Source of the DNA: Candidatus Sericytochromatia bacterium
GTDB taxonomy: Bacteria > Cyanobacteriota > Sericytochromatia > S15B-MN24 > VGJW01
Reading direction: 5' to 3'
Assembly: GCA_035285865.1 (NCBI GenBank)
Contig: JAYKHS010000007.1
Span: 83,508 to 147,507 of the forward strand
DNA length: 64,000 bases
Made by a program: the position numbers. Position 1 is the first letter of the stretch. Every line of letters begins with the position of its first letter. Shown in pieces: positions 32,801-44,800 of this stretch.

Positions 32801-35800
32801 GCCACGGTCCGGGACACCGTGGACGCCCTCTCGGGCATACGCCGGGCGAGACAGGCCCGGGACGAGATCGAGGTCCGCCAACTGGCCCTGCGTCTGGATT
32901 GGTGGTGGCGAACCCGCACGCTCGAGGCACTCGTCCCCACGGGAGGAACCTTGCCATGAGCCGCCTTCCCGACACCACGCGCCTCGAGATGATCCGGGAC
33001 GAGTGGTTGCGCGCGCTGGGTCTTCCGGCTGGAAGCCTGCCGCTCGACTCCCAGGGCCGTCCGACGCTGCCCGAGCCGCCCTGGCAGGACATTCTCGCTG
33101 GCGATCTCGAACTCTGGCAGGCCCGGTGCTATGGCCTGTACGAGCGCCTTGGCATGATCGACCCCGCCGCCCTCGGCCCGGAGGATGCGGCGTGCCTTTC
33201 CGTCCTCCTGCCCCACGTCCGGACCACTCTGCAGCGGCTCCACACCACGTCCTGCTGAACGGCGCCCCAAAGCGCGAAGCCCCGGGGAAATCCCCGGGGC
33301 ACGCGGTGGCTTCGTGCTACTTCTCGCCGAAGACCTTGGCGACGTTGTCGCTGATGGTCTTGCGGAAGCCGAACTTCTCGTCGAGCTTGTTCAGGCCGCG
33401 GTTGACGCCCCAGCTTACGGCCATGGTGCCGATGATGGCGGGTGCACCCAGCAGGACGGGAGCAGCAGTCAGGCCTACCGCGGTGATGGCCATGGTGGCG
33501 CCGGTGACGGCGAGACCGGTGACCACACCGTTGGCCGTGCCGATGGCGAGGTCAGCCGCCACGTTGCCGACGGCGCGAGCCGGGGTCTGCTGGTGCTTGG
33601 CGAGGGCCACGACGTTGCGGACCGTGGAACCGACGCCGTTCCAGAGAAGGTTGCCCTTGAGATTGCCCTTGAGCGTGCTGAGCCCCAGCTCCTTCCAGAA
33701 GGACCCCTGGGCGACGGCCTTGCCGGTCTCGCGAACCACGGCGGCGACACCGGGGACCACCACGGCCTTGATGTCTTCCATCAAGGGATCCGGACGGGTG
33801 AGATCCTTGGGGGCCACGGCCGGACGGACGGCCTTGGGTGCGACGACGGGCTTCAAGCTCTGGACGGCCATCTTTGGACTCCTCTTCCTGCGGACGGCTG
33901 GGTGACAAAGAGGTCATCGCCAGCTCCGCCGCCCGGGATTCTTAAGGACGGCTCAAGCTTCCCCCAAGATCAAGGGGCCACTGCCACGGCTTCCCAGTGC
34001 GACCCGCGAATCGGCCCGAAGGCCTCCACGCCCTTGCCCGCATCGAGGAACAGGAACTGCCCGACCAGGATGAACGCATGCTCGCCTTCCATCATGCCGC
34101 CGGCCTCGGGGACCGAAGACACGCGCAGCATCCGATTCGCATCCCAGCGCGGGTAGGGACCGAAGCCCACGAGGGCGGCCCCCAGTGGCGGCAGGGAACG
34201 CCTGCGACCGAAGTCGGGGCTGGCTTCGAAACGGACCAACCGGAAGGCCTGCCGGGCCGGTTCGCGCTCGAGCCACGCCGTGCTGCCGCAGGCAAGCGAC
34301 AGGCGCAGGTGGGAGGGGGTGGAAACGTTACCGGCCATCTTGCCTCGCAGGAGTCGTGACAGGGGTGGGACGAAGATTCGGTGAGGACGTCGCGGCGGCA
34401 GGCGCCAGTTCGGTGACGGCAGCCAGAAGTCGATCTGCCTCCGGCATGCCCTGAAGAACGTGCCGGATCCGGCGATCTCCGTCGAGGACGAAGGTCACCC
34501 GATCGGCCATCGGCATGAACCCCAGCCATCTGGAGCGGTAACGGTCGGCCACCCGCGCCCCCGGGTCGGAGAGCAGGGGGAAGGGCGTGGCACAGTGCAG
34601 GGCAAATCGCCCTTGCGTGGAGGGGTCGTCGGCGGAGAGGCCCAGCACCTGGGCCCCCAGCGCTCTCAGCTTCGGATAAAGGCCGGAGAGCAGCTTCATC
34701 TCGGCCTCTCAGCCGGGGGTGAAGGCCTTGGGGAAGAAGGCCAGGACGATGGGACGCCGCGGCAGGGCGGAGAGGCGCACGGGCTTCTCGTCCTCGGCCA
34801 GCAACGTGAAGTCGGGCGCGAGGTCCCCGATGGCCAGTCCGGCGAGCAGGACCGCAGCGTGCAACAGCATGCCGCCCATCATACCAAGGCCGGTCAGGAG
34901 GTCGCCCGTTTGCCGCCCCGGGCCGGGGGGGCTAGACTGACGGGACACACATGTTCGTCGTCATGCGCCCTCACGCCACCCCCGCCGAAGTCGGCGAGGT
35001 CATCGCACACGCGAGGGCGATGGGCTACGAGGCACGCCAGATCATCCAAGGCGAGCGCGTCGCGGTGGGCCTCTGGGGTGGACCCGACGGCCAGCCGTCC
35101 GGCCGACTCGCCAGCCTGCCGGGCGTCGTCGATCTGGTTCGCGTCTCCTCTCCCCACCCGCTCGCCAGCAGAGCCCTCGACACGGCGACCACGCATGTGA
35201 CCGTCGCGCCGGGCGTGGTCTTCGGCGGCCCCTCCATCGTGGTCATGGCCGGCCCGTGTGCCGTCGAGAACGAGGACCAGTTGCTGGCCGCGGCGCGGGG
35301 CGTTCGGGCAGCCGGTGCGACCGTGCTGCGCGGCGGGGCTTTCAAGCCGCGCACCAGCCCCTACAGCTTCCAGGGCCTCGGAACCGAGGGGCTCGCCATG
35401 CTGGAGGCCGCCCGTCGGGAGACCGGGCTCGCCATCGTGACCGAAGCCGTCGACGTGGCCAGTTTCGATGCCGTCGAGGCGGTAGCGGACATCGTCCAGA
35501 TCGGCGCGCGCAACATGCAGCACTATCCGCTGCTGCGCCGTGCCGGCCGCAGCACGCGCCCCATCCTGCTCAAGCGAGGCCTGTCGGCGACCCTGAAAGA
35601 GCTGCTGCTGGCCGCGGAGTACATCCTTGCGGAAGGCAACATGAATGTCATCCTGTGCGAACGGGGCGTCCGGTCCTTCGAGGACTACACGCGCAACATG
35701 CTGGACCTCGCCGCCATTCCGGCCCTGCACGAACTCTCCCACCTGCCTGTCGTCGCCGATCCCTCCCACGGCACGGGTCGTCGATCGCTCGTCGGCCCGA

Positions 35801-41800: not shown

Positions 41801-44800
41801 TCGCGCGTCCCGTGGTGCACGCGTACCCGCTCGCCGTGACGGACCTCGTGTCCGGCCGCAGACAACCGCACGTCAAGGACTTCCGAAGGCCCCAGCGTAT
41901 CCGGGTCCAGCAGCCAATGGCCGCGCGCGACCTCGGGATTGCCGGTCACGGCCAGGTTGACCGCCACGCGATGACCGGCCGGCACCTCGGGCATCGCGTC
42001 CCCATGCACCTGCAAGCCGCGCACGCGCACCCGATGGCCGCCCGGCTCGAGCACCAGCGCCATGCCCTCCCGAAGGGTCCCCGCCGTCAGCGTTCCCGTC
42101 ACGACGGTGCCGAAGCCCTGGCGGACGAAGACACGATCCACGGCCAGCCGGACCGGAGCAGCGGCCGGCCGCGACGAGGGCCGGGCAGTCCGGGCATCGA
42201 TGGCGGCCACCAGCGCCTCGAGGCCCTCGCCCGTGACGCTGGAAACCGGCAGGATCGGGGCCTCCGACCACGCCGTGCCCGACAGGCCCTCTCGGATGTC
42301 GGCCTCGGCAAGCTCGACCAGCTCCGGACCGGCCAGGTCGATCTTGGTCATCACGATCAGACCGGGTGGCAGCCCGAGCAATTCCAGGATGGCCAGATGC
42401 TCGCGGGTCTGGGGCATGACGCCGTCGTCGGCCGCCACGACCAGCAGCACCAGGTCCATGCCGCCGACGCCTGCCAGCATGTTCTTGAGGAAACGTTCGT
42501 GCCCGGGCACGTCGATGACACCGGCGACCCTCCCCGATGGGAGGGGGAAGGCTGCAAAGCCCAGATCGATCGTCAGCCCCCGGCGCTGCTCCTCGGCCAG
42601 GCGATCGGTGTCCACGCCTGTCAGACGGCGGACCAGAGACGTCTTGCCGTGATCGACATGACCAGCGGTGCCGATGACTACGGGCACGAGACCGCTCACG
42701 GACGCTCACCCTGCAACTGCCGGAAGGCCGCGACCACGTCGTCCGCATCCCCGGGCAGCAGGGTCCGGACATCCAGCCACCACGCCCCGTCGCGCAACCG
42801 CCCGATGACCGGGCGCGCACCAAGACGCAGGGCCGTGGCCAGCGCATCCGCCGACCAACCGCCCGCAGGACAGGGGACGCGCACGGCCCAGCTTGCGACC
42901 TCGGTCGCAGGCAAGGCCCCACCACCCGGCATGGAGACTGTTGCCACGGCCTCGGCAGGCCAGCCGGCCTCCAGCAGGCGCGAAGCAAGGTCCCGGGCGA
43001 GGGGCTCGAGCTCCTCGGCCGTCGCCGACAGCATCGCGAGGGCCGGCAGGGCCTGCTCGGGCGGGATGCCCGTGCCGTATCGCCGCAGCGTGGCCTCGAG
43101 CAGGGCCAGCGTGACCTTGTCGCAGCGGAACGCACGCAGCAGGGGGCGACGCCGCAGGCGATCGATCAGGTCCTTGCGTCCGGCGATTATGCCCGCCTGG
43201 GGGCCACCCAGCAGCTTGTCCCCCGAGAAGGTCACGAGGTCCAGACCGTCGGCCAGCACGCGCGGCACGGTCGGCTCGTCCGGAAGTCCGAGGGGCCCCA
43301 GCGGCACCAGGGAACCGGAACCCAGATCCTCGACCACGGGCAAGCCATGCCGGCGTCCGAAGGCCACCAGGTCGGCACGGGGCACCTCGGCCACGAATCC
43401 GGTCATGCGGTAGTTCGATGTGTGGCACTTCAGGACGAGCCGGGACTGCTCGGAGACGGCCGCTTCGAAGTCCGCGAGACGCGTGCGGTTGGTCGCTCCC
43501 ACTTCCCGGAGCACGGCGCCGGAGGTCGCCACCACCTCAGGAATGCGGAAAGAGCCCCCGATCTCCACCAGCTCCCCGCGCGAGACGAGGACCTCGCCCG
43601 ACCGGGCCAGCGCGTCGACGACCAGCAGGACGGCTGCGGCGTTGTTGTTGACGACCAGCACGGCTTCTGCGCCCGTCAGTCGTCGCAGGTGTTCCTCGAC
43701 CACGAGATGCCTGTCTCCCCGGGAGCCGGTCTCGAGGTCGAACTCGAGGTTGCAATAACCCGTGGCCTCCGCCAGAGCCTCGCGGACCACGTCCTCGGAA
43801 AGTGGAGCCCTTCCGAGATTCGTGTTGAGGACCACGCCCGTTCCGTTGACGACCCGACGCAGGCGGGGTGCCCACGTCCGGGCCAGTTGCTCCTCGACGA
43901 GGGCCACCCAGTCGGCGGCTTCGTCCGGCACGGATGTCCCGGCCTGAAGGGCGGCACGGGCCCCGGCGATCACGATGCGGACCGCCTCGGCAACCGCCTC
44001 GTCCCCGTGGCGTGCGCGACTGGCCGAGAGCGCGGGCGAGGCCATCAGGCGACCGACGGCAGGCAGCGCCCGCAGGGATCCTGATGCAGAGGGGTCGGGC
44101 ATGACCTGCCCATTCTATCCCTTGACACCGGGAATGCCGAATGCACACGATGAATCCGTGCTTCTGGACGTGCTTGCCTGGGTCGCCCGCCGCGAGGGTG
44201 CGCGGATGACCGAGATCCGCAGTGCCTTCGGCCTGAGCCCGTGGATGGCGGGCGCGCTGGTGGTGCAACTGCAGGATGCCGGATGGCTCGAGGACCCTGT
44301 CCTCGGTACCTGCCATCATCTGGGACCGGATGCCGACGCCGGTTCCTGCGGCAACTGCTCGGGCGGGGGCTGTTCGTCGCAACGGAGTGTCACGGACGAC
44401 CACGGCGCCCTGCTGGGCACGGAGATGGCCTTCGAGCAGGGCTGCTGCGGCATGAACCAGCCCTACAGGGTCACGGCAGCAGGTCGCTCCGTGCTCGAAA
44501 CGGCCACGCCCACCCCCGCGGACGAGGCCCGGAGCGAACGGCCCACCGCCGAGCATGTGGCCGCTGCCTGGGTGGCCCGGGCGCAGGCGCGCTCAAGGCT
44601 GGACCGCCCCGGAAGCTGACGCTCGGGATCCTCGGGCTCAGTCGAGGCGCACGGGCAGGCGGCCCGGGAAGCGCCCCTCTTCCCAGAGGGCGTCCACCAC
44701 CGCCTGCTGCTCGGCAGCGCCGGCGCCGTAGGCGCAGATGTAGGCGGCTGCTGCCGGGCACTGCTGAACCAGATAGGGACTGGAGAACGAGACTACGGTC

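Follow-up and report, generated by a model that had tools for sequence, protein, structure and literature searches.

Selenocysteine decoding and at least six predicted, mostly redox-type selenoproteins in a Sericytochromatia bacterium of the Cyanobacteriota

The bacterial system for selenocysteine (Sec) insertion, as set out in the sections of a 2026 review drawn on here (PMC13188914), consists of SelA, SelB, SelC and SelD with a bSECIS hairpin. Table 1 of that review catalogues SelD with UxxK, peroxiredoxins (Prx) with TxxU (PF00578), SELENOW-like proteins with CxxU (PF10262), Prx-like thiol:disulfide oxidoreductases with UxxC (PF00578), DsbA-like form 1 proteins with UxxC (PF01323), and thioredoxins (Trx) or thiol:disulfide interchange proteins with UxxC (PF00085/PF13098). 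In the cited portion of the GOS marine surface-water selenoproteome (PMC2398784), SelW-like, SelD, Trx-like, Prx, Prx-like and DsbA proteins dominate and there is little FdhA, which is much like the set described below; the GOS data are unassigned reads, whereas our set can be assigned to a single genome and a single class. Actinomarina, according to the part of the preprint considered (bioRxiv 10.64898/2026.04.03.716425), has about five predicted selenoproteins per genome and resembles our case in being an aquatic surface-water lineage with SelD among its selenoproteins, no SelU and a previously overlooked trait. It belongs to another phylum, and most of its targets are uncharacterised, whereas all six here are thiol-oxidoreductase types or SelD.

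We analysed a stretch of 64,000 nucleotides (the window) of a Candidatus Sericytochromatia bacterium together with the rest of its genome assembly. All four components of the known system (PMC13188914) occur here too, with selA and selB coupled; the GTG start of selB and the stop of selA share 4 nt. In contrast to that system, as far as the cited sections describe it, selC and selD lie apart from selAB, and a Sec-containing formate dehydrogenase (Sec-FdhA) is found neither nearby nor elsewhere in the assembly. The genome-wide survey's note had reported tRNA-Sec, selA, selB and selD, and all of them pass curated cut-offs: SelA (TIGR00474, 533 bits vs 268), SelB (TIGR00475, 341 bits vs 242, with a SelB-wing_3 domain) and SelD are NCBIfam equivalogs, and tRNA-Sec scores 70.5 bits where the Rfam gathering score is 47; the remaining two hits over that cut-off are tRNA-Ser. 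The start of selA is more likely at window position 44102 than at 44045, because in the longer ORF the profile match already opens at residue 10. Judging by its N-terminal motif, the gene directly downstream of selB may encode a SpoU/TrmJ-type RNA methyltransferase. A Rfam scan of window positions 33000-46000 gave no match. A search for RNA data sets containing the sequence found none, which has no bearing on expression.

Features of the selenocysteine system; positions without a contig prefix are those of the window, and all six proteins are read with TGA as U
Feature	Position	Strand	Sec residue and motif	Remark
PrxQ/BCP-type seleno-peroxiredoxin	34328..34882	minus	U58, T-P-G-U	
In-frame TGA, Sec codon of prxQ	34709..34711	minus	U58	
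Hairpin with G-less loop	34659..34695	minus		at usual prxQ SECIS position; kept in four genus members; candidate non-canonical SECIS
10-bp hairpin, G-T-N loop	34636..34658	minus		60 nt after UGA; rival distal SECIS candidate
Gene directly downstream of selB	40136..40855	minus		not known as part of the Sec system
selB	40843..42699	minus		Sec-specific elongation factor, C-terminal winged helix
selA	42696..44102	minus		L-seryl-tRNA(Sec) selenium transferase
tRNA-Sec	C12:38192-38285			anticodon tca (UCA); Rfam RF01852; ARAGORN tRNA-SeC
SelD			U19, GGUAAK	
SelW-like Rdx			U11, CTMU (CxxU)	
DsbA/FrnE-like protein			U11, UPWC (UxxC)	
UGHC membrane protein, Prx-like			U100 from TTG start, U91 from first ATG	
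UPAC membrane-anchored thioredoxin	C17:89154-89639		U79, U-P-A-C	sixth gene

Five selenoprotein genes had been proposed by the survey, and translation of their coordinates with TGA as U reproduces every one of them, with the in-frame TGA at a catalytic Cys position. The total did not stand, as at least six were found; the UPAC protein had been missed by the survey. Domain matches place PrxQ with the TxxU peroxiredoxins (AhpC-TSA, PF00578, 101.8 bits), Rdx with the SELENOW-like CxxU proteins (PF10262, 67.8 bits; TIGR02174 above cut-off), the DsbA-like protein with DsbA-like form 1 (PF01323, 125.4 bits, UxxC) and the UGHC protein with the Prx-like UxxC thiol:disulfide oxidoreductases (PF00578, 55.6 bits vs a cut-off of 26). 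The best NCBIfam matches of PrxQ are BCP/PrxQ, under their cut-offs. The six proteins share motif and domain type with families catalogued in Table 1 of the review (PMC13188914), where each of the six motif/fold types is listed, and the system is thus of a known kind. Compared with the catalogued TxxU peroxiredoxins, the PrxQ subfamily here appears to carry signal peptides, its N-terminus being hydrophobic in this genome and signal peptide-like in orthologues. On the basis of hydrophobicity and orthologue N-termini, PrxQ, with its signal peptide, and the UGHC and UPAC proteins, with their N-terminal anchors, probably act outside the cytoplasm, and SelD, Rdx and the DsbA-like protein probably inside it. 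The neighbours of the unlinked selenoprotein genes form no common redox operon.

The UPAC protein differs from the catalogued UxxC thioredoxins (PMC13188914) in being divergent: in this genome it lies under the Pfam gathering scores and has no NCBIfam match. Scanning the genome with Pfam Thioredoxin did not recover its gene, and looking for homologues with the single sequence gave no match, so genes of this kind can escape family searches. Its orthologues match PF13098/PF00085 with E down to 2.5e-11, and its profile gave 21 database matches at E<=1e-8, of which several are C-terminal fragments that begin immediately behind the UGA. Among orthologues C/U79, P80, C82 and T128-P129-T130, a cis-Pro-type TPT motif, are invariant. 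The AlphaFold model (pLDDT 91) has a thioredoxin fold with a helix at 80-84, UxxC standing where this active-site helix begins, and its Foldseek matches are thioredoxins. TGA occurs in 11 of 18 matches in the class, all 11 in selB-positive genomes. Judged from these comparisons, the protein apparently represents a divergent, lineage-restricted subfamily.

Across the class (47 genomes: 46 and this one), 123 aligned orthologous sites comprised 85 TGA and 38 Cys codons, a count in which related genomes are not independent. A selA or selB match was present in the genomes holding 82 of the TGA sites; the other three are all in a single genome (G016) that is 81% complete and whose congeners have the machinery. 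Genomes without Sec machinery held 28 of the 38 Cys sites. Cys counterparts were found for SelD, PrxQ, DsbA and the UPAC thioredoxin, and none among the class matches of Rdx and the UGHC protein. SelD, Rdx, PrxQ and DsbA each keep the TGA in at least three families, the UPAC protein keeps it in two and the UGHC protein in one.

Hairpin energies of -27 to -34 kcal/mol had been offered in support of SECIS elements; this evidence is weak, as z ranged from -2.85 to +0.41 against 200 dinucleotide shuffles, a control in which minimum-free-energy hairpins do not discriminate. SECIS support here comes instead from covariation. Pairing in the Rdx hairpin reaches 87.2%, and a wobble-wobble pair in it alternates between GC7, CG6, AU3 and UA3, and the SelD hairpin is 91.3% paired with 24 compensatory cells; each was reached by 0 of 500 shuffles, a control that ignores kinship, and stood far above slid controls. 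A strict motif with a G[G/U] loop, tightened after the sequences had been seen, fits 64 of the 85 Sec sites in the class against 1 of the 38 Cys sites, and five of the six genes here against 45 of 522 control TGAs. The loose published bSECIS model was unselective (340 of 528 candidate TGAs) and was set aside. As in the bSECIS described in the cited sections (PMC13188914), five of the six genes have a G in loop position 1-2 at 16-37 nt after the UGA, their G[G/U] apical loops lying 19-33 nt after it; this prxQ departs from that consensus. Taken together, the intact machinery, a Sec/Cys pairing that tracks it in 47 genomes and the covarying hairpins uphold the survey's reading of Sec decoding.

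Further candidates and absences were sought in the same assembly, which is 82.7% complete, so that absences are provisional. Twenty-five further read-through candidates, chosen by hand among the highest-placed of two ranked sets (528 and 266 candidates), were scanned with Pfam; a domain spans the TGA in one, a nucleotidyltransferase (C18:13516), which we rejected as a selenoprotein because its genus orthologues have Trp there, a nonsense change. A third ranking used the strict motif, which selected 798 of 9238 TGAs; visual inspection of the first 150 yielded no new redox-motif candidate, and the glutathione peroxidase has Cys. The reported lack of Sec formate dehydrogenase is confirmed for this genome and for its genus, and genome-wide TGA scans gave no glycine reductase candidate, though no family search aimed at that enzyme was made. 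SelU (TIGR03167) has no match in this genome or in any genome of families f1-f5, and is present in 5 of the 47 genomes of the class; 18 of 20 Sec users of the main clade show neither Sec-FdhA nor SelU. COX1, a heme-copper oxidase, is present in this genome, and a photosynthetic reaction centre has no match.

We consider it very probable, from the sequence evidence above, that a canonical bacterial Sec system decodes in-frame UGA in at least six genes, mostly of redox or antioxidant type. By established knowledge, SerRS would charge tRNA-Sec with serine, SelA would convert Ser-tRNA to Sec-tRNA with selenophosphate made by SelD, itself carrying U19, and SelB would bind the hairpin just 3' of selected UGAs and insert Sec; the other UGAs, about 1,570 in number, would remain stops. 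In each of the six proteins Sec would substitute for the attacking or redox Cys. For PrxQ, the most likely course is peroxide reduction by U58 and resolution through a U58-C97 selenenylsulfide. We infer that the trait may be kept for thiol/peroxide redox work in a heme-copper-oxidase organism that has neither Sec-FdhA nor selenouridine.

Gene decay, with the TGAs as nonsense mutations or assembly errors and the machinery as a relic, is hardly credible. The nucleotidyltransferase is one real case of such a change, but the six TGAs lie in the catalytic Cys column, their downstream frames are intact and their hairpins covary, and conservation across families already contradicts decay. For prxQ, contigs of two other studies (runs X2 and X4) span the codon, with 7 and 6 differences that leave it untouched, so it is not an assembly error. 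A genome-wide reassignment of TGA to Trp or Gly, or its reading as Cys, is equally improbable; Cys at these sites would also yield sensible proteins, but TGA ends about 75% of the predicted genes (1571 of 2105 stops), which points to site-specific recoding, a single one of the 25 additional candidates had a domain across it, and the UCA-anticodon tRNA is of tRNA-Sec type. An unlikely variant is that the other five genes are decoded while prxQ of this genus, having lost the canonical SECIS retained by PrxQ genes in other families, is poorly decoded or differently regulated. No canonical bSECIS fits 16-37 nt after its UGA, and a G-G-T-C-loop hairpin found in prxQ of three other genomes (G002, G010, G011) is replaced in the four genus members. 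However, all four, at 71-82% identity, retain the TGA and the full downstream frame with its second Cys, Cys97, which orthologues conserve. Two alternative hairpins are kept in them as well, the G-less one near 30 nt after the UGA and the distal one, with a 5-bp core that two Cys orthologues form as well. Across the class, 12 of the 19 Sec sites in PrxQ likewise miss the strict motif. Location of prxQ 6-8 kb from selB is confined to the genus.

The origin of the trait is less certain. The survey's figure of 98 of 3329 Cyanobacteriota hides a sharp split between classes: selA occurs in 23 of 47 genomes of the Sericytochromatia class, 88 of 401 of the Obscuribacterales class and 0 of 401 of the oxygenic class. 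We lean towards the view that the main Sericytochromatia clade, family f6 and the Obscuribacterales class each gained the machinery separately, and away from inheritance from the phylum ancestor. In three unconstrained SelA trees each group forms one clade and the groups are not sisters, and the trait is patchy within each class that has it. Against this, the tree backbone lacks strong support, the f6 sequences deviate in composition, no donor clade is supported, and trees forcing the class together, or the class with Obscuribacterales, lie 24.3 and 25.0 lnL above a quick free tree; AU tests of these two (p-AU 0.889 and 0.888) had no control union and count as non-rejection only. More tentatively, Sec may have been ancestral in Cyanobacteriota, passed vertically in both non-photosynthetic classes with a part-periplasmic thiol/peroxide set without FdhA or SelU, and lost on the oxygenic stem.

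What is new here is the range of the trait across classes; protein novelty is low and the mechanism is textbook, which makes the result more useful than very surprising to a selenium specialist. Ordinary gene calling splits or truncates five redox genes per genome. The class split narrows the absence of the trait to the oxygenic class, and this is testable by phylogenomics. If the ancestral reading were true, Sec loss would be one change that accompanied oxygenic photosynthesis. The genome is also a counter-case to the idea that FdhA or SelU is needed for holding the Sec trait, and another case against the view, expressed in the cited part of the review (PMC13188914), that aerobes rarely keep selenoproteins.

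That UGA is read as selenocysteine in this Candidatus Sericytochromatia bacterium, as the genome-wide survey's note had claimed, is well supported by the machinery, by a Sec/Cys pattern that follows it and by covarying hairpins in orthologues. The assembly (2.82 Mb, 66.9% GC, 82.7% complete) carries tRNA-Sec and, in the window, selA and selB, both over their NCBIfam cut-offs (Table). A four-base overlap joins the two genes, and the C-terminal winged helix of SelB is present. Because TGA terminates 1571 of the 2105 predicted genes with a stop, the genetic code is not reassigned. 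The decoding steps would follow the established bacterial pathway (PMC13188914).

Features of the Sec system and nearby genes (the window is C7:83508-147507; C12, C17 and C18 are other contigs of the assembly; L-numbers are retrieved loci)
Feature	Position	Strand	Remarks
selA	window 42696-44102	minus	533 bits (cut-off 268)
selB	window 40843-42699	minus	341 bits (cut-off 242)
prxQ frame	window 34882-34328	minus	TPGU, U at residue 58
tRNA-SeC	C12:38192
tRNA-Asp	C12:38331-38405 (L001:1640-1714)		same strand as tRNA-Sec, 45 bases downstream
UPAC thioredoxin	C17:89154-89639 (L013:3155-3640)	plus	161 aa, N-terminal membrane helix, H-T-U-P-A-C at residue 79
Nucleotidyltransferase (Polbeta)	C18:13169-13573 (L271)	minus	in-frame TGA
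QueF-like gene	window 39434-39838	plus	between ribD/usp and the selAB operon
Tandem paralogous ORFs	window 29567-30520, 30703-31659	plus	N-termini near-identical; second scanned as 30463-31659

The tRNA-Asp is possibly co-transcribed with tRNA-Sec. In its longer form, the second tandem ORF matches LIM and DA1-like domains, which are better known in eukaryotes.

All five selenoprotein genes listed in that note hold, the four outside the window translating as claimed and matching SelD, Rdx, AhpC-TSA and DSBA models, but its count was low. When in-frame TGAs were ranked by a dicodon model trained on the genome, all five passed and one further gene stood out, the UPAC thioredoxin, which a Pfam Thioredoxin search of the genome did not recover. 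Among its 18 matches in the 47 genomes of the class, 11 have TGA, every one in a selB-positive genome, and the other seven have Cys, of which five come from genomes where selB gave no hit. C/U79, P80, C82 and T-P-T are invariant, the structure model has a thioredoxin fold (pLDDT 91.2), and the profile matches solved thioredoxins. Six of its 21 hits in a large protein database are fragments that start a few residues past UxxC and read like Sec-type orthologues, as ordinary gene calling would leave them. A domain ran across the TGA in only one of 25 other hand-picked candidates, a nucleotidyltransferase with Trp at this position in genus orthologues; the TGA is most likely a nonsense change. The scan was not exhaustive, with 17% of the genome missing.

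The prxQ TGA was unchanged in the contigs spanning it from sequencing runs X2 and X4, of two other studies; X5 contigs did not cover the site, and the source sample is possibly X1. In 15 of 15 PrxQ orthologues another Cys is kept 39 residues past U58, and we infer that it is the resolving residue. Because several PrxQ orthologues have clear signal-peptide-like N-termini and the UGHC and UPAC proteins each have one strong hydrophobic N-terminal helix, half of the six proteins probably act outside the cytoplasm, as judged from N-terminal hydrophobicity and orthologue N-termini. Relatives have a second Sec peroxiredoxin subfamily (DDTPGU; G003, G005-G008, G010 and G011, loci L074-L078, L081 and L084) and, in G001 (L080), a Prx-like selenoprotein with S-P-H-U-R-I-C; neither was seen in the 82.7% of the genome at hand.

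The active-site codon was read at 125 loci that matched one of the six genes (for PrxQ, loci of 30 of 35 matches, paralogues included), and two were dropped, one a misaligned paralogue and one with its site outside the match. The remaining 123 sites comprised 85 TGA and 38 Cys, counts given without a p-value because related genomes are not independent. Of the TGA sites, 82 belong to the 24 genomes where selA or selB was hit; the other three lie in G016, an 81% complete genome with two congeners that both carry the machinery. Genomes without machinery account for 28 of the Cys sites. One relative, G004 (L149), has SelD with Cys for Sec, although selA, selB and further Sec genes are retained.

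The hairpin energies earlier offered as SECIS evidence are unremarkable at this GC content, and a loose bSECIS consensus was unselective (340 of 528 candidate TGAs). Orthologue comparison is more informative. In the Rdx hairpin, two third-codon positions stay paired in all 19 of the distinct sequences while switching among four pair types, and that of SelD has both-sided changes in five of seven pairs; percentage paired and covariation score exceeded 500 of 500 shuffles and slid controls for both, the structures having been drawn from the sequences tested. A strict rule with the published G[G/U] loop pattern, fixed after the data were seen, matched five of the six genes against 45 of 522 control TGAs, and 64 of 85 Sec sites against 1 of 38 Cys sites. 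Only prxQ failed it. A canonical hairpin is present in its orthologues from G002, G010 and G011, but in the four members of this genus a G-less one takes its place and a G-loop hairpin lies 60 nt out; two Cys orthologues can form the core of the latter as well.

A heme-copper oxidase subunit I is encoded, and there was no photosynthetic reaction-centre hit. Consistent with the note's exclusion of formate dehydrogenase from the Sec set, no FdhA-like match was found; nor was SelU, at 82.7% completeness. Outside family f6, 20 genomes bear the machinery; none of them has SelU and only G010 and G011 have Sec-FdhA, and several of the other 18 are 98-100% complete. This Sec-FdhA (U-H-A-P; L296 and L295) has a canonical SECIS-like hairpin and, within the class, occurs in a single genus. 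In family f6, G032 (L170) and G033 (L169) carry SelU and strongly divergent SelB-like proteins that the selB profile missed at E<=1e-60. In the available text of a 2006 survey (PMC1794560), Sec users without FdhA possess Sec-SelD and mostly also selenouridine; for the FdhA-less Sec users examined here the former holds, G004 excepted, whereas the latter fails.

In the genomes sampled, selA exceeded its cut-off in 23 of 47 of this class, 0 of 354 others drawn from the phylum, 88 of 401 of Vampirovibrionia, where two Obscuribacterales records carry selA and selB, and 0 of 401 of the oxygenic class to which G345 belongs, a genome with photosystem II reaction-centre genes. The class names are those of the survey's note or what we take to be GTDB usage. 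Each of three SelA tree runs placed the 18 sequences of the order and G001 in one clade (SH-aLRT 99, 96 and 73). Support was strong for families f1 and f2 and 90 for f3, a pattern that suggests vertical inheritance over a long time. Separate clades were formed by family f6 and by the sequences on the Vampirovibrionia side, on a backbone without resolution. Constrained trees joining the groups could not be rejected, and their scores were above that of a quick free tree; the latter, however, fell short of the optimum, only 80 loci served as outgroups and the tests lacked a control union. Sec decoding may thus, as a possibility, have been ancestral in the phylum and then lost.

We found no published work joining selenocysteine with Sericytochromatia, or selenoprotein with non-photosynthetic cyanobacteria, in a search outside which most subscription journals lie; papers returned for Vampirovibrionia did not contain that name. 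In the portions available, PMC1794560 and PMC9312934 state that Cyanobacteria lack the Sec trait, and PMC9529120 describes one protein with Sec from the proteome of a member of the Melainabacteria. All six motif or fold types appear in Table 1 of PMC13188914, and the six genes may already be catalogued in BSepDB, whose input, by the accessible text, included eight Sericytochromatia and some Vampirovibrionia genomes (PMC13326102). Antioxidant selenoproteomes poor in FdhA are likewise known from marine metagenomes (PMC2398784), and a similar case is reported for Actinomarina (bioRxiv 10.64898/2026.04.03.716425), both as far as the text available goes. What is added here is a sixth gene, a class-level split within the phylum, Sec decoding kept in the absence of FdhA and SelU, and one candidate SECIS of non-canonical form.
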